From positions 1 to 41,199 of IMG/VR virus record IMGVR_UViG_3300027509_000006: a stretch of 41,199 bases of DNA; one strand, 5' to 3'. The translations under genes were made by a program, and so were the position numbers. The notes beneath the pieces were generated by a model. That model made no database searches. It worked only from the letters and a program-made list of their open reading frames with translations, and had not been told where the DNA came from. This DNA is from a virus. This document shows, piece after piece, positions 4,204 to 33,051 of the stretch. The first letter of the stretch is position 1; each line of letters opens with the position of its first letter.

Positions 4204-5903
4204 TCAGCATCAATATTTTCGGAAGTAGCCTGGATCTCTATCCTGATACCAGTGTCGAGTTCATTCTGAATTCCCCGTTGTTTGTCGGTGGAGATATCAC
4301 AAAGGTCTCAGGCTCTTACACCCTGCCCATTAATGTTCCGCTCACCTCAGCCAACAAAAAGACACTGAGGTATCCATCCAGAGTGGATAATGCAGCTTTG
4401 CAGATATATGATGAGCCCTGTCAGATATATTTCCAAGGCAAACCACTATTTCAAGGTCTAGCAACCATCCAGTCAAGCAGCAAAAGCACTAAGAGCAAAT
4501 ATGCCAGACTATACGTACTCATTGAAAGCTTCACTGAGATAAAAAATCTCAAATTGAATGAGCTGGATCTTGGTGTACACGAGTTTGCAGACTTAGCAGC
4601 TATCCTGGCACACGCCAAGGACACAGCCCTCAACCCTCTCACACATACCCACGCTTTTTTTCCTGTTGCTAATTCCCTGATGACTCAAGACATCACCTTC
4701 CCGGATGGCACGCCTGATGACCTGGAAGGAAAAAAATTCATCAATTACTATGATGTGGCGACTGATTCATTTGTTTCTGATCCCTTACAGCGCTCAGCAG
4801 CGCCATTCATCAGATTGGATTACATACTAGAAAAAATAGCTGAGGCCACTGGACTCAGTTTTGAGAATTTATTTCAGAATACTGACGAACTGAAATCATT
4901 GTATGTGTACAACGATGTCAGCATCTATGATGAAGACTTTGAAGATGATGATCCGACTTTGGGTCCGCATTGGAATCTTGATTTTGATCTTTCTGATCAT
5001 GTCCCCAATTTATCAGTTTCAGAATGGCTGAAAAGAATATCGAGATGGTTTTGCATTGCACTGCTTCCAGATGTCAAGCAAGGAAAACTTGAATTGATTT
5101 CTCTGAAGGATATTATCACTGCTCCACATTCAGCAGATTGGAGTGCTTATCTATCTGATGAAATAGGAAGTTCCACTCCGATGGATTTCCCTTCCAGCCT
5201 GGGCTATGAATCCAGCAAGGATGAAATGTTTACGAGATTTCCCTTTTTGAATTATTATTCATTCACAATCAGTGGAGTTCCTGATGAAGTAGATACTAGA
5301 GATGATGCTGATACTCCTGGATGGTATTATGTGAACTCGATTAACTATTACTTACAAAGATTATCTGGAGGAGCTTCAGCAAGAAAATTCGGAAGGTCTA
5401 AGAAAATGATGAGACAGATATCTTTGAATGAAAATGGTCAACCTTTTCTATTTAGTAGCTCTCCATTATTCATGACAACTACCAAGTTGTCAGAAACAAT
5501 AACATATGTACCTGAAGCGAGAACCGCACCTGGCACTAATGATGAGATAAGGCTCATGTTCTACAGAGGGCTGCAAAGTGATGCTGATGGAAACACATAT
5601 CCTTTTGCTTCTAATACCATATACGATCCCAAAGAGGATGTTATTCCAGGCGCTCAGCAATCCCTCCTCTGGAACGGCCCACACGGAATGTTCGAGAATC
5701 ACTGGAAAGAGTGGGCCAACTTCCTCCAAAACAAGAAAAATGTGAAAACTTCACTGAATTTACCTATTAGAGAAATTCTTAATATGAAGTGGAAAAACAA
5801 GGTCTCTATCCGAAACAATCAATACCTTGTGAAACAATTGAGAGTGATTCTGACGAACCAAGGATTGAAGCCCTGTCCCGCTGAATTAGTAACAGTTTTA
5901 TGA
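4200..5903 (+). CDS. Putative tail/baseplate structural protein
   Basis: 567-aa ORF with ATGA-type coupling at both ends. The role is inferred from position. Confidence 0.55.
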   Translation: MISINIFGSSLDLYPDTSVEFILNSPLFVGGDITKVSGSYTLPINVPLTSANKKTLRYPSRVDNAALQIYDEPCQIYFQGKPLFQGLATIQSSSKSTKSKYARLYVLIESFTEIKNLKLNELDLGVHEFADLAAILAHAKDTALNPLTHTHAFFPVANSLMTQDITFPDGTPDDLEGKKFINYYDVATDSFVSDPLQRSAAPFIRLDYILEKIAEATGLSFENLFQNTDELKSLYVYNDVSIYDEDFEDDDPTLGPHWNLDFDLSDHVPNLSVSEWLKRISRWFCIALLPDVKQGKLELISLKDIITAPHSADWSAYLSDEIGSSTPMDFPSSLGYESSKDEMFTRFPFLNYYSFTISGVPDEVDTRDDADTPGWYYVNSINYYLQRLSGGASARKFGRSKKMMRQISLNENGQPFLFSSSPLFMTTTKLSETITYVPEARTAPGTNDEIRLMFYRGLQSDADGNTYPFASNTIYDPKEDVIPGAQQSLLWNGPHGMFENHWKEWANFLQNKKNVKTSLNLPIREILNMKWKNKVSIRNNQYLVKQLRVILTNQGLKPCPAELVTVL

Positions 5904-6753: not shown

Positions 6754-7689
6754 ATGTCCTTACAGCTTAAGCCTATCCCACGTGTATGCAGCTCTACTGC
6801 AGCAGTAAGAAAAATCACACTTACTCCTGATAATAATATCCAGCTCATCTCTGGAAACCTATCTGTAATAGATCAGACGAAAGTATTCTCCATCTATTTC
6901 AGAAGCGAGTCAGGCCAGTTCAAAGAAACTTCCAGACGTTCTAAGTTTGGAATGTACGTGGATCAGGCGCTCAGCTTCTTCACGCCTAAGAAGCGTTTCG
7001 ATGTGGAATATATCATCACGCAGCTGAGTAACCACAGATGTGCAGTCGTCGTCACGGACTGGTCTGGAAATATAGAATACCTTCAGAAATCCAGGATGAG
7101 CTATGTCTATGATTCTGGCGCCTTGAGATCTGCCAGGAATGGCTATGCTTTTTCTTTCGCAGCTCAGACACTTAAGAAAAACAAGCTCGATCTCAGCAGC
7201 CTCATAGGTACAGAAATAGAACCCGGAGATCCGAATGAATTTCCCCAGGCACCAGTACCCATTCCGCCACAAGATGATCCGCCTGCCAGCAATAATGGAC
7301 CGGGTTTCTATGTGGAAATAAATCCAGTAATTCTGGACGCTGCTCCACCAGCAACTGGTAACACGACGAATCTCTACACCTTCGTCATAGCACCGAGTAA
7401 TGAAAAATACTTCATAGACAGAAGCGGAAATTCTTTCAATCTCGGAGGTGGAGACATCCCTCTATACCATCAGGAATTCACCTCCTCTGATTTTACAGGC
7501 AATACTATTACTGTAACGGTGGAAGATCTGCCAGCTGAAGATAAATACATCAAAGTCTTCCTGAATGGCATCAAAATAGAATATTTCTCTGGACCTCTGG
7601 GACAATTGCAGTATAGTCGGAATGGGCAAGACCTCACCTTCTATAAGCTTACCTTAAGATCAAGAGTCAATATTTATTTTTCAATATAG
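6754..7689 (+). CDS. Putative tail fibre/baseplate-associated protein
   Basis: 311 aa with a proline-rich linker (PQAPVPIPPQDDPPASNNGPG) separating two domains. It lies directly upstream of the fibre-like genes. Confidence 0.5.
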   Translation: MSLQLKPIPRVCSSTAAVRKITLTPDNNIQLISGNLSVIDQTKVFSIYFRSESGQFKETSRRSKFGMYVDQALSFFTPKKRFDVEYIITQLSNHRCAVVVTDWSGNIEYLQKSRMSYVYDSGALRSARNGYAFSFAAQTLKKNKLDLSSLIGTEIEPGDPNEFPQAPVPIPPQDDPPASNNGPGFYVEINPVILDAAPPATGNTTNLYTFVIAPSNEKYFIDRSGNSFNLGGGDIPLYHQEFTSSDFTGNTITVTVEDLPAEDKYIKVFLNGIKIEYFSGPLGQLQYSRNGQDLTFYKLTLRSRVNIYFSI

Positions 7690-27111: not shown

Positions 27112-28143
27112 ATGACTCTACTATTCACCTCTACCGTCACAGAAACCAGAGAAACTAAGATCCAGGATACCAACTTCCTGGAGCACTATCCCAGCGTCAA
27201 TGGAAATATGAACTGGCTCAAGTTCAAGCCCTACATCAGACAAGCCAGTGATGACGTGATGGAATACATCTCAGCAGAATTCTATGATGTGCTCACAGCT
27301 GACACCAGTGAGACTGATGATGCAGGTATCACATCCCTGAAAGAGCGGATAAGATCCACGCTGCAAGATGCCATCGCCTATCTGTCCGTCTACAAGGCCA
27401 TGCCCTTTCTCAATATCGTCATAGCCGACATGGGAGTCCAGCAAGGCAGCAGCGAGAATGGCACCTCACAACCGACTAACCAGTGGAGGTACAAGAATAC
27501 CAGATGGTCTGCACTCATCCAGTACTATAATAAGCTGGACCAGCTGCTGGCACTGATGGAAGAAAACATCTCTGAGACCCTGCTGGATAAATTCAAAACC
27601 AGCAAAGCCTACACCGTTCACAATACCTTATTTTTCAAGCATACCGAGGTGCTGTCTCAGTACCTGGACATAGCCAATTCCAGAAGGACTTTCATCTCCA
27701 TGCTGCCACATCTCCGGAAAGCTCAGCGAGATCTCAGAGTCCTCCTCTGTCACCAGGCCTATGATGAACTACTGACCAAGCTCGACCAGGACGACAACTC
27801 AGATGAGTATGATCAGCTGATAGAACTCTCCAGGCATTATCTGGCGAATAGAGCGCTCTATCTAGGCATCCCACACCTCAGAGTTCTACTGGAAGGCAAT
27901 GGCATCCAGGTCGTCACACAGACCGACACCATGGACATCAAGAACCCAGCTAACGAGCAGATGGTCAAGGATCTCTTATTCAGAGCTGAGCAGGATGCAG
28001 CCTCTTATAAGTCTGATATCATCGGATTTCTCAGAGGTAACCTGGAGGTCTTTCTTGCTTATAAGGAGCATGGCTATGTGGAGGGTGAGAGCAGGACGGT
28101 GTTTGCGTCAGGTGATAAGGTGGGTGGAATATTATTATCTTAA
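27112..28143 (+). CDS. Hypothetical late protein (last gene of the + strand block)
   Basis: 343-aa ATG ORF with GC content like the phage core. No motif recognised. Confidence 0.6.
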   Translation: MTLLFTSTVTETRETKIQDTNFLEHYPSVNGNMNWLKFKPYIRQASDDVMEYISAEFYDVLTADTSETDDAGITSLKERIRSTLQDAIAYLSVYKAMPFLNIVIADMGVQQGSSENGTSQPTNQWRYKNTRWSALIQYYNKLDQLLALMEENISETLLDKFKTSKAYTVHNTLFFKHTEVLSQYLDIANSRRTFISMLPHLRKAQRDLRVLLCHQAYDELLTKLDQDDNSDEYDQLIELSRHYLANRALYLGIPHLRVLLEGNGIQVVTQTDTMDIKNPANEQMVKDLLFRAEQDAASYKSDIIGFLRGNLEVFLAYKEHGYVEGESRTVFASGDKVGGILLS

Positions 28144-28601
28144 TATCTACTTAATCTTTTAACAAAACTTTTCTTAGTAAGTGAATCTTTTCTTTTCTTT
28201 CTCTGGTGTTCTGGAGAAACAGATTCTAGCAGCTTCATTCTTTTGGTTTTTCTTACGTATAAACTTCTTTTTAGATATGCATCTGGTATGAATACCTCAA
28301 TTTTGTCGCTTTGTCTCTGTTTAATTTTCTTAAGTTCTTCCTTGATTAATTGTAGGCTCCTATCGTTTGTCAGCATTTCATTTAGATGCAAGGTTCGAAA
28401 GTGGTTTAATAGGTCTTCAAGATTTTCGAAGTATGCATTTATCATAACAATCGGTGAATCTTCAAAACTAACATGGTCTTCTATTGTTTCTATAAATGAC
28501 TCCTTGAACGGTGCATTTACAAGGTATGTTTTTTTATCTGGGTCCGAAAAAATTCCTTGAGAAACCTGTGGAATAAAACCAATTACCTTAAATAATTTCA
28601 T
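28140..28601 (-). CDS. Orphan protein with a strongly basic C-terminal tail
   Basis: 153 aa. Its start overlaps the upstream gene stop by 4 nt. The C-terminus is EHQRKKRKDSLTKKSFVKRLSRY. No family recognised. Confidence 0.6.
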   Translation of the reverse strand: MKLFKVIGFIPQVSQGIFSDPDKKTYLVNAPFKESFIETIEDHVSFEDSPIVMINAYFENLEDLLNHFRTLHLNEMLTNDRSLQLIKEELKKIKQRQSDKIEVFIPDAYLKRSLYVRKTKRMKLLESVSPEHQRKKRKDSLTKKSFVKRLSRY

Positions 28602-29425
28602 AATGTTGTCATTTCAATATTCAAATTGGAAATACTTCTTTTTATTGATCTCCATTGAAGAAGTAACATTTGATCATATTTGTCAGATACGGACTCTTTA
28701 ACATCCATTCTTTCTAACTCCTCAAACAATTTTTTTTTAATGGAGATACGTTCAAAATCCTCAGCTAGTATGTCAGAAAATATAAGAATCTCCAACCATC
28801 CTCTAGAGCTGTTTGAAATCAAATCATCCCAAATTCCAGGGTCTGGTTTTAAATCGAATTGATGTTTTATTGTCGCTAGACATTCTACACTACCCCAACT
28901 AGAAACATCTTCACTAAATCTCAAATCATCAAAGTCTAATTCGCTGTTCAGGTATATCAATGAAAATTGTTTCAAGCAGAAAAGATCTCCCAACTCACCG
29001 AAAGAATTAGTTAAAAGAATATTCACTCGTCCGCTGCCAAAACCAGGCCAGTTTAAACCCATGCCACCAGTATGTAAGGAAGCATACTTTAACACTTTAC
29101 CATCTTCAATAAGTTCTGCAAACGCTTCAAATTTGTCAAAGTAGGGAATCGAACCAGCATTGTAACGTTCTTTAATGGCATCTTTGCTATATCCTTGCTC
29201 AAATACATTCAAGTACTTCTTTTGTAGAAGAACACTGTTCAAAGCAGCAAGGTTCAAGTTAATACAGATACTTTTTTTTGATCTTACATACGTAAGAAAC
29301 TTGTCAAAAGACTTATCGGTTTCAGCAAGTTTCTCAATCTTGGTTTTTAAGTCAACATCATTGGAAAACGCCCAGTTATTTATCTCACCTTTCTGGACAG
29401 GCTTTGACGTTTTCATTTTATGCAT
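28598..29425 (-). CDS. Orphan protein, unknown function
   Basis: 275 aa, starting 41 nt downstream of the darG stop. It has a glycine-rich segment HTGGMGLNWPGFGSGRVNILL. No family recognised. Confidence 0.6.
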   Translation of the reverse strand: MHKMKTSKPVQKGEINNWAFSNDVDLKTKIEKLAETDKSFDKFLTYVRSKKSICINLNLAALNSVLLQKKYLNVFEQGYSKDAIKERYNAGSIPYFDKFEAFAELIEDGKVLKYASLHTGGMGLNWPGFGSGRVNILLTNSFGELGDLFCLKQFSLIYLNSELDFDDLRFSEDVSSWGSVECLATIKHQFDLKPDPGIWDDLISNSSRGWLEILIFSDILAEDFERISIKKKLFEELERMDVKESVSDKYDQMLLLQWRSIKRSISNLNIEMTTL

Positions 29426-29466
29426 AATTGATTCGTTTGGGAGTGGAAAAGGCGCAGAGTTAATAA

Positions 29467-30507
29467 TTATTTTAAAACTCTTTGTTTCTTTAAAGTTGGT
29501 GCGAGGCCTCCTAGTGACATCGTTATTAAACCAAGCTCAGTCATAGCCCTAATCGCCTGGTCAACATCTGATTTTTCAAAGGAGTTCTTCTTATGTTCTG
29601 ACCAATTTTGAAGGAGAATAAATAAGTCTTTGTCAGTACAGGGATAATTTTGCTCTAATAAAGTTAGGAGTGACGAAAGTAATTCCAGATTTTTATCCTC
29701 GGTAATCCTGTTGATTAAATTGGTTGACTGAATGATGGATGCATCAAATTTTTGAAGCTTATTCAAAACAGATTTACTAATGTTTGTGTTCAGAGCTAAA
29801 TCAAGTGCCTTCTCTGTACCAACGTTATAATAAGTCTGGTATTCTATAATTTGGCGACTAAGGATACTAATCGCATTTGAATAAGGACCGAAATGATAGT
29901 TTTGAAATTTGAAATAATTTTCTTTTGAAAAGTAGTTGAGAAAGAATCCCGATTTTTGAAGACGGACTTTGTTGAATTTAGATAACTTGGATTTAATTAT
30001 CATAAGAATTAAATGACTAGCATTCAATTTAGGCACTCTAGTAACTTGGTTTTTATTAACAACTGAGGAGGGTTCGAAAATTATTATATCAAGTTCATCA
30101 GCAAATTTCAAAACATAACTTACTATAATATCTTTAACGATATTCCATTCTAAACCTCCATTGCCACAACCAAGAGGAGGGATTGCTATAGAATTGATAT
30201 TTAGCTTAGGTAATTCTTCGACCAGAGCATTCATACCTGAATCAATGTATTCATATTTTGACTTTTCTCGCCATTTGTTTTTAGTTGGAACATTAATCAA
30301 AACCTTATCATTTTCTCTTGAAACTAGGACCTTGCCAATTCCAAAAGATCCATTCTTGCATGCTAAAACGTAGCTGTCGTTATTACTAGGAAATCTAGTT
30401 TTAAATTGATAGGCAATTCCCTTTCCCATGAATCCTTCGCAATTCACTGTATTTACCAAGGCGTCAGTCCCAGCCTCAAACATATTTCCAGTTGTTAGCT
30501 TTATCAT
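29467..30507 (-). CDS. darG: DarG-like macrodomain antitoxin (ADP-ribosylglycohydrolase)
   Basis: The N-terminal macrodomain motifs are GNMFEAGTDALVNTVNCEGFMGKGIAYQFKTRFP and IAIPPLGCGNGGLEW. An extra C-terminal domain of about 190 aa is present. The start overlaps the darT stop (ATGA). Confidence 0.8.
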   Translation of the reverse strand: MIKLTTGNMFEAGTDALVNTVNCEGFMGKGIAYQFKTRFPSNNDSYVLACKNGSFGIGKVLVSRENDKVLINVPTKNKWREKSKYEYIDSGMNALVEELPKLNINSIAIPPLGCGNGGLEWNIVKDIIVSYVLKFADELDIIIFEPSSVVNKNQVTRVPKLNASHLILMIIKSKLSKFNKVRLQKSGFFLNYFSKENYFKFQNYHFGPYSNAISILSRQIIEYQTYYNVGTEKALDLALNTNISKSVLNKLQKFDASIIQSTNLINRITEDKNLELLSSLLTLLEQNYPCTDKDLFILLQNWSEHKKNSFEKSDVDQAIRAMTELGLITMSLGGLAPTLKKQRVLK

Positions 30508-31082
30508 TTCTTGAACATAGCTGAATTACAATTAACATAAATTCCTGTTTTTCCTAGCTTAGTAAGCAAATCATCTATCCTTTGCTTATCAGTTCCATTC
30601 TTGCAGTAAATTGCATAAATATCGGTAGAAAACACCGTATTTTCACTCAAACATTCTGCCATACAGCAATTTTTACAGTCTTGATCGCAGTAATCTCTGA
30701 CTCCCATTAAATCCCAATCAATTAGTTCAATGCCCGTTTGAAAAGGATGTAATATGGGTGGGTTCAAAGATAATGGATGTTGCGTAAGAATTTTAAAGTT
30801 ATTTCGTTTTGCAAGTGTCCTTAGAATCGTTAAAAATACAAAAGTGAGACCTTTACAATCTTGCTGGACTTGTCCAGCAAATGGGGTTCCAGCAAAAAAA
30901 TGAAAAGGTACATATCCGTTTAAATTATGTTTCTTTCTGTGAGCGATTATTTTGTCATCTGCAACATCATGAAAGGCAGCGAGATTTCCTCTAGCACTTA
31001 GTCCTTCCTTCAGAATCTGCTCTAGATTATCAAATGCTGTTAAATGAAAAAGTAGCTTTAATTGTTTAGGATGTTTTCCCAT
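30504..31082 (-). CDS. darT: DarT-like DUF4433 DNA ADP-ribosyltransferase toxin
   Basis: 192 aa from ATG 31082. The motifs are LLFHLTAFDNLEQILKEGL, GYVPFHFF, LIDWDLM and CMAECLS (the family AEfLv glutamate motif). The track extension to 31238 overlaps the upstream gene and is rejected. Confidence 0.75.
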   Translation of the reverse strand: MGKHPKQLKLLFHLTAFDNLEQILKEGLSARGNLAAFHDVADDKIIAHRKKHNLNGYVPFHFFAGTPFAGQVQQDCKGLTFVFLTILRTLAKRNNFKILTQHPLSLNPPILHPFQTGIELIDWDLMGVRDYCDQDCKNCCMAECLSENTVFSTDIYAIYCKNGTDKQRIDDLLTKLGKTGIYVNCNSAMFKK

Positions 31083-31104: not shown

Positions 31105-32484
31105 CTAATAACTCCCCACCCCCACCATATCCAGCAGCCGCTCATATTGCACGACTTCCACACTATTACGACCCAGTACCGCCTTGTCAGTCGGGAGTTT
31201 TCCACTCTCCAGGGAGCGGATATCCAACTTGTCACCAAGCTGACTGATGAAAGCGATACTGCGATCGTGTATGGGAGATCTAAGATATAATCGTGAGTAA
31301 TTCTTAAGATGTGCCAGTGCCACCTCAGCCTTTTTCAATTCTCCTTGCTGCTGATGATAGATCACCTTGCCTATGAGGAATGGTAGTGTGACATGAATGT
31401 TCTCTCGTGGTACTTTATTCAGATTGTAGTGTAATTTCTTGAGGCTGATTTTCTCACCCAGGCTGATGGCCATGTAGAGCGCATAGACTTGCATCCTGGT
31501 CTTATACGCTGGCTGGCCAGTCTTGTGCACATTCTTCTCTATCCATCGGAACAGCGGCAGTGCCTTGAGGTAATCACCTTGGTGGAGATAGATCTGGAAG
31601 AGCAGCTCGTTGTATCTGTAGACGTGCGACCCCTTAGTCTTCTGTTCTGAGAGAGCTGACAGTATGACCAGCTCGGCCTGAGCCAGATCACGGGCAGCTA
31701 TGTGGACGTCCAGAATATGGAAGGTGAAAATGTTGATTACCATGGAGTGCTGGTATGGAAGAGCTCTGAAATGTTCTATGGCACGATGACAAGTCTCTAT
31801 CTGTGATGGTTTATCGCCATCTATGTAGGCAAGGAAAAAACTGAACTCAAAGTGAATGAGCTGTAATCTTATACTATGCTCCAGATGCGGTTTCATATCG
31901 TGGATTACCCTTTGCATCTGTGTCCTGGATTCCTGAAAAGCTTGTGTGCCATACCTGGAACGGACTACAGCATAATCCCAGTCAAACTCAATTTCCTTAC
32001 GATACAGTTCCAGATGATTCAGAGCCATCTTGTGGAAGGACTCAGCCAGATGGCTCTCTTTTTTCAGGGCATACCTGTTGGAGATTTTTCTGCAAAGCTC
32101 CGCAGAGATATTGTGCATCTGGTAAGTGGTGCTGCGTCTCAGTAATCTTCTGGCTGCGGCTATGATAGCGGACGAAAACCCAAAAATAGACATCAGTGCG
32201 ATGGCTTGAAATTCACGGTGAATACTGGTTTTTTGCCTCTGGAGTGAGTTTCCTCCATCTATATGCGTGAGGGAAACGATAAGTTTGTCATAGAGATGCG
32301 ACTTGGTCTTGACAAAGGATCTTACACTAGGTGAGCTACCATACATCTGCTTAGACATCGCTTCATAAGATTGTCCTGAGGTCAGACCATCGGCTAGCTC
32401 TAGTTCTTTAGGTGTGAGATTATCAGTTCCTTTTTCTCCAAGGTACTTTGAGCAAATCTCAAGTAATTCTCTTACTGGTAGCAT
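31105..32484 (-). CDS. Regulator with an N-terminal LuxR/GerE-type HTH and a long TPR-like alpha-helical repeat domain
   Basis: 459 aa. Residues about 23-68, LTPKELELADGLTSGQSYEAMSKQMYGSSPSVRSFVKTKSHLYDKL, align to the GerE-type HTH consensus. A hydrophobic helix FQAIALMSIFGFSSAIIAAA follows. The remaining 330 aa or so are helical-repeat-like (for example YNELLFQIYLHQGDYLKALPLF). GC content matches the phage core. Confidence 0.6.
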   Translation of the reverse strand: MLPVRELLEICSKYLGEKGTDNLTPKELELADGLTSGQSYEAMSKQMYGSSPSVRSFVKTKSHLYDKLIVSLTHIDGGNSLQRQKTSIHREFQAIALMSIFGFSSAIIAAARRLLRRSTTYQMHNISAELCRKISNRYALKKESHLAESFHKMALNHLELYRKEIEFDWDYAVVRSRYGTQAFQESRTQMQRVIHDMKPHLEHSIRLQLIHFEFSFFLAYIDGDKPSQIETCHRAIEHFRALPYQHSMVINIFTFHILDVHIAARDLAQAELVILSALSEQKTKGSHVYRYNELLFQIYLHQGDYLKALPLFRWIEKNVHKTGQPAYKTRMQVYALYMAISLGEKISLKKLHYNLNKVPRENIHVTLPFLIGKVIYHQQQGELKKAEVALAHLKNYSRLYLRSPIHDRSIAFISQLGDKLDIRSLESGKLPTDKAVLGRNSVEVVQYERLLDMVGVGSY

Positions 32485-32600
32485 AAGGATGCCTTTTTCT
32501 TTGTTTATAATCTAGTTCTTTATAAGCACGTTTTTTAGTTGTAATTAAATAGCTGTTTTGCGAAATTGAGTCATTAATGATTTTTAAAACTTATACAACC

Positions 32601-32663
32601 ATGGACATCTTGATAGAAATTCTGATCGCACTAGGTATCATCGAGGATACTGATGGCATCTAA
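32601..32663 (+). CDS. Candidate 20-aa micro-ORF (MDILIEILIALGIIEDTDGI), possibly just part of a small RNA
   Basis: Runs from ATG 32601 to TAA 32661..32663 on the + strand, between two - strand genes. A hairpin with a T-run begins 8 nt after the stop. Confidence 0.2.
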   Translation: MDILIEILIALGIIEDTDGI

Positions 32664-32670
32664 GAAACAA

Positions 32671-32708
32671 GCAGAGGTCCCAGTCACGAAGACCTCTGCC
32701 TTTTTATT
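32671..32708 (+). terminator. Rho-independent terminator, potentially bidirectional
   Basis: GCAGAGGTC (32671..32679) pairs with GACCTCTGC (32691..32699) across an 11-nt loop, followed by CTTTTTATTT. Read on the - strand it follows the cI-like stop but has a weaker T tract (TTGTTTCTT). Confidence 0.7.
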
Positions 32709-32709
32709 T

Positions 32710-33051
32710 CTATTCTACTTTGTCTCTTAACTCTTTCATGGCCTCTGTCATTTTATTTTGATCCTTCAAGAGTCTGATAAGTTCCATATTCATCTCTCTC
32801 AGGTACTTGATCTCTTCATCTTTCTCGGATTTGTAATCTTCAAAAGCCAATACGCCTCCCTCTTCAGGCAACTTATCGACTATGTAATTTTTAGCGTCTG
32901 GGTATTTTTCAAGTATTCTTTCTGTAATGCTGTTAGATAGTTCTTTCCCTGATTCATATCTAGATATTCTAGATGCGCCAACTCCAATAGCAATTGCTAT
33001 GTCCCCTTGACTCTTTTTTATTGACTTCCTAAACTGCTTTAAATCAATCAC
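32710..33051 (-). CDS. cI-like XRE-family repressor (HTH plus coiled coil, no S24 peptidase domain)
   Basis: 113 aa. The HTH is SQGDIAIAIGVGASRISRYESGKE. The C-terminal part EEIKYLREMNMELIRLLKDQNKMTEAMKELRDKVE is coiled-coil-like. It is divergent from the Cro-like gene. Confidence 0.65.
   Translation of the reverse strand: MIDLKQFRKSIKKSQGDIAIAIGVGASRISRYESGKELSNSITERILEKYPDAKNYIVDKLPEEGGVLAFEDYKSEKDEEIKYLREMNMELIRLLKDQNKMTEAMKELRDKVE

Follow-up and report, generated by a model that had tools for sequence, protein, structure and literature searches.

What kind of regulator stands beside the repressor gene in the phage genome IMGVR_UViG_3300027509_000006, and does it work alone or with a partner? 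The window analysed here is the whole stretch of DNA from position 1 to 41,199 of this IMG/VR record (41,199 nt), and it encodes a 459-aa protein between a cI-like gene and a DarTG island. An earlier note on this window had described an N-terminal helix-turn-helix (HTH), a hydrophobic helix and helical repeats in the protein, and had likened it to the RRNPP receptors, among them the arbitrium receptor AimR, as a possible ligand-sensing regulator. Here we report that the protein, hereafter the receptor, has a confidently modelled HTH plus tetratricopeptide repeat (TPR)-like fold, that it is linked to a translated micro-gene, that peptide class and receptor have diversified together, and that a phage lineage keeps the pair beside its immunity gene. 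On balance, we lean towards reading the receptor as one half of a two-gene peptide–receptor regulatory cassette, RRNPP-like in its logic without being a member of that family, which the phage has captured between its cI-like gene and the DarTG island.

The receptor gene and its two domains map as follows.

31105–32484, minus strand: receptor gene, a 459-aa open reading frame (ORF) with an ATG start, encoding a cytoplasmic HTH plus TPR-like solenoid protein

32269–32421, minus strand: probable LuxR/GerE-type HTH (residues ~22–72; helices 25–35, 40–48 and 55–72)

31225–32247, minus strand: TPR-like helical-repeat domain, putatively peptide-binding (residues ~80–420; ~8–9 helix pairs by DSSP of the model)

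The 459-aa ORF proposed earlier stands: it has an ATG start, the beginning of the protein (MLP[VL]..) is conserved in the closest relatives, and the same protein, 100% identical, is found on five public metagenome contigs, one of which is a 133-kb contig with the whole element integrated. An AlphaFold2 model built from a 59-sequence alignment (mean predicted local distance difference test, pLDDT, 93.9; predicted template modelling score, pTM, 0.88) is all-helical, its 22 helices being laid out as four N-terminal helices, ~8–9 TPR-like helix pairs and a C-terminal helix. A profile of the family matches TPR, pentatricopeptide repeat (PPR), kinesin light chain (KLC) and MalT domain III (1hz4) chains over profile positions ~230–335. 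The model and these matches bear out both the helical repeats and the overall HTH plus TPR-like architecture. The separate hydrophobic helix, in contrast, dissolves into the first helix pair of the solenoid (H80–101/H104–120, pLDDT ~94–98), and a membrane anchor at residues ~93–116 was rejected on the same ground. Pfam, PHROG, NCBIfam and PADLOC hold no family for the receptor, the sole match being TPR_MalT below threshold (E=0.011), and a tblastn search of 50,697 phage records found no match.

For the N-terminus, a profile of residues 19–76 from 27 family members (profile A5) was searched against the PDB. Its 19 best matches were all LuxR/GerE/NarL-type HTH domains (E=0.003–1.3), including 3clo (0.0034), GerE (0.0098), DesR (0.024), VpsT (0.025) and EvgA (0.04), and they align in register on LTxKExEL...G.S..EIAK.LY, the LuxR/GerE signature being LTxRExEVL...G.S.KEIA...S..TV. 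A broader N-terminal profile also leans towards the LuxR/GerE type, without significance, and a model of the N-terminal region (pLDDT 83.7) placed FixJ, RcsB, EvgA and EL222 at ranks 1, 2, 4 and 13 of 14 in a Foldseek search of the PDB, all at E>1. Pfam gave no HTH_3 or XRE match for the receptor. Across the family, the putative recognition helix has a nearly invariant K61 and an invariant K67. The GerE/LuxR-type HTH of the earlier note is probable, judging from these profile alignments.

The suggested homology to AimR or other RRNPP receptors did not hold, and AimR homology was rejected. The family profile matched no Rap, NprR, PlcR, PrgX, Rgg or AimR chain in the PDB at E<=10, and the receptor matched no RRNPP family in Pfam. 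Foldseek of the receptor model against the PDB gave no match at E<=0.001; in the top 50, the Rap protein of pLS20, RapI/F/J and NprR came best, mixed with LGN, NOT10, KLC, APC subunits and MalT (E>=3.9e-3, template modelling scores 0.2–0.45). The similarity to Rap and NprR is no better than that to LGN or KLC, and AimR is not among the matches listed. In the BFVD viral fold library only generic TPR and SNAP proteins were found, and AimR is again absent among the matches listed. The modelled fold class is TPR-like, with a specific kinship to AimR or RRNPP not demonstrable from it.

Upstream of the receptor, on the opposite strand, lies a micro-ORF.

32601–32663, plus strand: peptide gene of 20 codons (MDILIEILIALGIIEDTDGI), divergent from the receptor and 116 bp upstream of it

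The product is hydrophobic and acidic, with the C-terminus ...IIEDTDGI; an in-frame ATG at 32577, upstream, would give 28 aa. We first compared the flanks of ten loci, namely the window, one related phage and eight chromosomal or metagenome-assembled loci, whose receptors are 26–51% identical. All ten carry an ORF of 17–20 codons on the opposite strand, ~70–180 nt upstream of the receptor start; besides MDILIEILIALGIIEDTDGI, the peptides are MAILNYLLILLGIIEDNGGI, MEFINWLLSFIVEDDGGI, MTTVIDWLLGIIEDITGL, MTALINWLLGIIEDMEGI, MAEFIEWLLGFIIEEDDAI, MDVVDIIIEIIEELGGL, MGIIEIIIEIIEELNGF and MVQLILILLGIIEDTDGL. Among receptors of the ~460-aa clade, a 17–21-codon ORF ending [IL][IVT][ED][ED]xxG[ILFV]-stop occupies the equivalent place in 13 of 15 members, and it is also present in locus L130. 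As a regular expression, the peptide motif gave one off-position match in 40 loci of ~4.4 kb.

These micro-ORFs carry a coding signature. Over the last ten codons of 17 peptide genes, the entropy at codon positions 1, 2 and 3 is 0.73, 0.73 and 1.57 bits; codons for Gly, Ile, Glu, Asp and Leu show synonymous variation; and TAA, TAG or TGA always follows directly after G[ILFV]. Two close alleles, from the related phage (L016) and from L130, are separated by four synonymous and two non-synonymous changes. The variation at third codon positions, together with the invariant placement of the stop, argues that the micro-ORF is translated and under purifying selection. Rfam gave no match here, and with the codon-position entropy and the stop placement this led us to reject a non-coding DNA or RNA element. 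The most variable positions of the peptide, even among close relatives, are the two residues preceding the terminal G[ILFV]. A strong hairpin is found within a few bases 3' of the peptide stop in 8–9 of the 17 loci, which would make these genes tiny monocistronic units.

Scanning viral sequences with a back-translated peptide pattern returned just the L016 contig again. The same pattern matched metagenomes at 43 places, and no receptor lay near any of them; some were due to chance and the others to an unrelated enzyme of ~400 aa whose C-terminus reads ...AQIWLGIIEDQPGL. This enzyme family (L086, L088, L097, L104 and other metagenome contigs) ends in ...AQIWLGIIEDQ[PF]GL, the same C-terminal motif as in the peptides; the likeness may be a coincidence or may reflect a common recognition motif for a C-terminus-binding partner.

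The receptor belongs to an unannotated family that is common in Saprospiraceae. A word-indexed protein search found two relatives only, and the family became visible through an exhaustive HMMER search of representative proteins, which gave 131 relatives of 440–520 aa. It is present in 252 of 301 sampled Saprospiraceae genomes, many with five or more copies, and some copies lie in tandem; elsewhere in Bacteroidota it is less common, matching 23 of the 401 genomes sampled. The ~460-aa subclade of the window is itself rare (14 of 401 genomes at E<=1e-40), and the ~510-aa subfamily had no match in a scan of viral sequences. The chromosomal cassettes are mostly stand-alone two-gene units, their flanking genes being unrelated and often convergent.

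In a maximum-likelihood tree built from 39 receptors, peptide class and gene arrangement track the receptor phylogeny. The short divergent peptide accompanies the ~460-aa clade and also the basal ~510-aa members. In two intermediate groups the divergent peptide is 43–46 aa long, keeping the hydrophobic N-terminal part and adding a linker and an acidic C-terminal motif. In the crown group the small ORF lies downstream and co-oriented, and encodes a basic N-terminus and an ...IIVVDI..P end; one sister pair has peptides ending ...IIITD[IV]NGV. The two phage receptors fall within one strongly supported seven-member clade, in which they are not sisters and chromosomal copies are interleaved.

Two further arrangements were seen among the chromosomal loci. 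At L012, one receptor is accompanied by two peptide genes, an upstream divergent one at 5714–5854 on the minus strand (..MAEFIEWLLGFIIEEDDAI) and a downstream co-oriented one at 7486–7545 on the plus strand (MEAFLEWLLNFIIDDNGGL). Tandem receptor paralogues 0.5–2 kb apart are found at G281:C13:78757-83438, G146:C184, G179:C7, G271:C166 and G110:C1, and these Saprospiraceae pairs are reminiscent of the paralogue arrays of Rap-Phr and Rgg.

The phage context of the pair recurs in the related phage L016, whose primase is 46% and terminase-like protein 70% identical to those of the window phage. In L016, too, there is a cI-like gene, and the peptide and receptor genes occupy the slot that they have in the window, here bounded by the cI-like gene on one side and the structural module on the other; a DUF4177 gene and an ORF of no known function stand in place of DarTG. 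The receptor is 37% identical between the two phages, compared with 46–70% for backbone genes. The interval between the L016 peptide gene and the cI-like gene contains, downstream of the former and on its strand, a gene for a DUF2335 membrane protein (L016:5040-5396, minus strand), a possible output of the peptide promoter. A third locus, L001, has all three genes as well, with the cI-like gene and the receptor each 51% identical and the peptide gene alongside; they are found beside a serine-recombinase fragment and chromosomal genes, and this locus is probably the remnant of a mobile element.

The window itself is the complete genome of a phage with direct terminal repeats (DTR); genes for an integrase, a primase and a tape-measure protein are among its contents. 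No polymorphism was seen among the copies of the phage in metagenomes, all being 100% identical. In the integrated copy, a tRNA-Ser(TGA) (L003:1326-1414) directly adjoins the phage integrase gene and is likely to be the attachment site. This tRNA-Ser element of ~88 nt is 90–98% identical across most of the Saprospiraceae genomes searched, and a Crp-like host gene flanking the prophage has 72–76% DNA identity to five Saprospiraceae genomes; we conclude from these two matches that the host is a member of the Saprospiraceae (Bacteroidota), and the phage is a temperate Saprospiraceae phage. The genomes nearest to the prophage's host flank (G061, G005, G001, G395 and G317) are the same ones that bear window-like chromosomal cassettes.

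Around the cassette, the neighbouring features of the window are these.

32710–33051, minus strand: candidate cI-like repressor of 113 aa with an XRE-type HTH and without a peptidase domain (Pfam HTH_3 E=5e-6; phrog_8/phrog_3)

32669–32701, no strand assigned: bidirectional intrinsic terminator with a 13-bp stem and T-runs on both strands, from a terminator scan

32485–32600, no strand assigned: divergent intergenic region of 116 bp, which from the gene layout is presumed to hold the promoters of the peptide gene and of the receptor operon and the receptor binding site

28140–31082, minus strand: low-GC island with darT (30504–31082), darG (29467–30507) and two ORFs (28598–29425 and 28140–28601)

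Read along the minus strand, the order is cI-like gene, bidirectional terminator, peptide gene (on the opposite strand), 116-bp intergenic region, receptor, a 22-nt gap, then darT, darG and two ORFs. The direct flanking described in the earlier note is accurate on one side, where darT begins 22 nt past the receptor stop codon (31082); on the other side, the terminator and the divergent 20-codon gene separate the cI-like gene from the receptor. The terminator, a strong one (-15.4 kcal/mol), lies directly 3' of the peptide stop; it stands between the cI-like transcript and the peptide gene and is predicted to end that transcript as well. DarT and DarG were identified by Pfam, NCBIfam and PADLOC matches. 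Guanine-plus-cytosine (GC) content is 0.34 in the DarTG island compared with ~0.45 in the receptor and the phage backbone, and from this difference we take the island to be a later insertion behind the receptor. No terminator is predicted in the 22-nt gap, and the island is probably co-transcribed with the receptor.

The intergenic region contains TTATAA-n9-TTATAA, and a block AATAGCTG..TT.CGAAATTG is common to the window and locus L008. Separately, an exact 12-mer, TCTAGTTCTTTA, occurs both in the intergenic region (32511–32522) and in the 5' coding part of the receptor (32399–32410), 112 nt apart; ~0.5 such repeats are expected by chance.

How might the two genes work together? In the cassette as we read it, the receptor would bind the shared intergenic region, and the peptide, or its C-terminal part, would bind in the TPR groove and thereby switch the DNA binding or the activity of the receptor. 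The switch would control the peptide gene, as feedback, and the receptor operon, which here would run into darT-darG and two further island genes; the neighbouring cI/cro switch may be affected too. A temperate Saprospiraceae phage lineage would have captured one copy of the cassette from the large chromosomal family and kept it beside its immunity region. The conserved adjacent peptide gene strengthens the earlier idea of a ligand-sensing regulator well beyond its original basis, and any link from the receptor to lysogeny or to darTG expression is, as before, one that we infer.

Several observations weigh against this reading of the locus. The HTH assignment is unproven and marginal: the profile E-values on which it rests are 0.003–0.2, the Foldseek matches lie above E=1, and Pfam GerE gave no match to the single receptor sequence at E<=1. 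Alignment of the intergenic regions and a search for inverted repeats gave no convincing conserved operator, and intergenic 12-mers sought elsewhere in the phage had matches at chance level, and neither the cI/cro region nor any other phage promoter shares a motif with the intergenic region. The peptide lacks a basic N-terminus as well as a Sec or double-glycine leader and has a net charge of ~-5, and the flanks examined contain no linked gene for an exporter, a protease or an oligopeptide importer. Similar C-termini (IIEDTDG[IL], IIEDNGGI) are paired with receptors merely ~20–37% identical, which disfavours tight one-to-one specificity. Finally, most family members are Saprospiraceae chromosomal genes unlinked to phages. 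The earlier note had itself counted homologues unlinked to phage switches against its proposal, and most homologues are of this kind; at the same time, the position beside cI that it had pointed to is kept in L016.

The peptide may be exported and sensed between cells, and a larger claim could be built on this. The cassette would then be a peptide-based communication system in the diderm phylum Bacteroidota and its phages, independent of RRNPP, in which the phage copy counts its own lysogens or eavesdrops on host cassettes, setting lysis–lysogeny and/or DarTG: an arbitrium-like circuit outside Bacillota. We regard this as possible rather than probable.

The main rival, which we consider rather unlikely, keeps the peptide inside the cell that makes it. 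Here the peptide would be a non-secreted micro-protein, an acidic amphipathic helix docking on the TPR domain as an antagonist or co-factor, and the pair would form a private feedback loop or bistable switch in the producing cell. The missing basic N-region and recognisable leader fit this rival, as do the acidic residues found every 3–4 positions (MDVVDIIIEIIEELGGL, MGIIEIIIEIIEELNGF), the absence of transporter genes linked to the cassette in the flanks examined, and a diderm host, in which a signal peptide would need to cross two membranes. However, streptococci export the SHP and ComS peptides, which are leaderless and have no linked transporters. The 43–46-aa variants look like a pro-peptide with a leader, having a hydrophobic N-terminal part, a linker and the acidic C-terminal motif, and the crown-group variants resemble exported SHPs in their basic N-terminus and hydrophobic core.

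A second rival would separate the two genes, the receptor being an ordinary stand-alone transcription regulator or TPR scaffold and the micro-ORF either a small gene with no relation to it or a conserved non-coding element. The marginal HTH evidence and the lack of a defined operator speak for it. It is nevertheless disfavoured, and to our minds improbable, for the linkage persists at 26–51% receptor identity, in phage and chromosomal settings and despite rearrangements of the peptide-gene position, the third-codon pattern and the invariant stop placement show a translated ORF, and Rfam has no match. The last and least probable proposal, that the receptor is a dedicated sensor or regulator of the DarTG island or a regulator of a bacteriocin or other ribosomally synthesised and post-translationally modified peptide (RiPP) with the micro-ORF as precursor, draws on the 22 nt between the receptor stop and darT with no predicted terminator, but DarTG is absent from L016, L001 and all chromosomal cassettes, the island has the GC content of a later insertion, PADLOC has no match for the receptor (which was rejected as a DarTG component on the missing conserved linkage and this null result), and no modification or export genes lie beside the micro-ORF.

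The peptide–receptor cassette would matter beyond this phage. RRNPP(A) and arbitrium systems are described only for Bacillota and their mobile elements in the literature searched (PMC10075063, PMC12700828, PMC11343458), and full-text literature searches returned nothing on such peptide–receptor pairs in Bacteroidota or Saprospiraceae. If the pair signals between cells, Bacteroidota too use gene-encoded peptide signals, and the combination of HTH, TPR and peptide has more than one origin, the DNA-binding domain here being a different one. Temperate phages of the environmentally abundant Saprospiraceae (activated sludge, lakes, algal surfaces) may in that case decide in a density-dependent manner. 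Consisting of one 459-aa protein, one 20-mer peptide and 116 bp of control region, the cassette is compact and therefore directly testable in vitro and with reporters.

Where, then, does the cassette stand among known systems? RRNPP(A) receptors have a C-terminal TPR-type peptide-binding domain with a core of five TPRs, optionally nine (PMC12700828). The receptor falls within this fold class, with ~8–9 helix pairs, specific relatedness not being shown. A small peptide gene next to the receptor, the companion that defines RRNPP-type receptors, is present as the conserved 17–21-codon ORF with its coding signature. The HTH departs from the XRE/Cro-C1 type of RRNPP(A) receptors (which Rap lacks), only LuxR/GerE/NarL-type matches having been found, and there is no detectable homology in sequence or structure. 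Because HTH type and detectable homology both fail, we file the cassette as an independent variant of an RRNPP-type system.

One close likeness is to the Rgg/SHP and ComR/ComS systems of streptococci, which belong to the RRNPP(A) superfamily. These systems share with the cassette a receptor that is cytoplasmic and joins an N-terminal HTH to a helical-repeat domain, a leaderless gene for a small hydrophobic peptide of ~17–35 codons that is often divergent from the receptor, a hydrophobic peptide C-terminus with conserved acidic residues, and expansion into many paralogues. They differ in their XRE-type HTH, LuxR/GerE-like here, and in the absence of detectable sequence homology; the host here is a diderm of the Bacteroidota, the short peptides here have no basic N-terminus, and no linked genes of the PptAB, Eep or Opp type were seen in the flanks.

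AimR/AimP of the SPbeta-like Bacillus phages is alike in a phage-encoded receptor of HTH plus ~9 TPRs, a short peptide gene and a site at the lysogeny module, and in strong receptor divergence between related phages (here 37%, against 46–70% for the backbone). The arbitrium layout itself is not reproduced: aimP is a downstream, co-oriented gene for a Sec-dependent pre-pro-peptide of ~43 aa that is processed to a hexapeptide, and aimX is the output, whereas the peptide gene here is upstream, divergent and of 20 codons, darT lies downstream of the receptor, and there is no known counterpart of aimX.

In MalT and the LAL regulators, too, a GerE/LuxR-type HTH is joined to a TPR-like superhelical sensor, and the weak TPR_MalT and MalT domain III matches fall here. 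Their HTH is C-terminal and not N-terminal as in the receptor, which has no NTPase domain, and its presumed ligand is a gene-encoded peptide instead of maltotriose and ATP. VqmA-Phi of vibriophage VP882 differs in being a PAS-LuxR receptor of the small molecule DPO that drives an antirepressor, an output with no known counterpart here; it is alike in that a temperate phage carries a receptor type also found on chromosomes of the host lineage, allowing it to eavesdrop on host signals.

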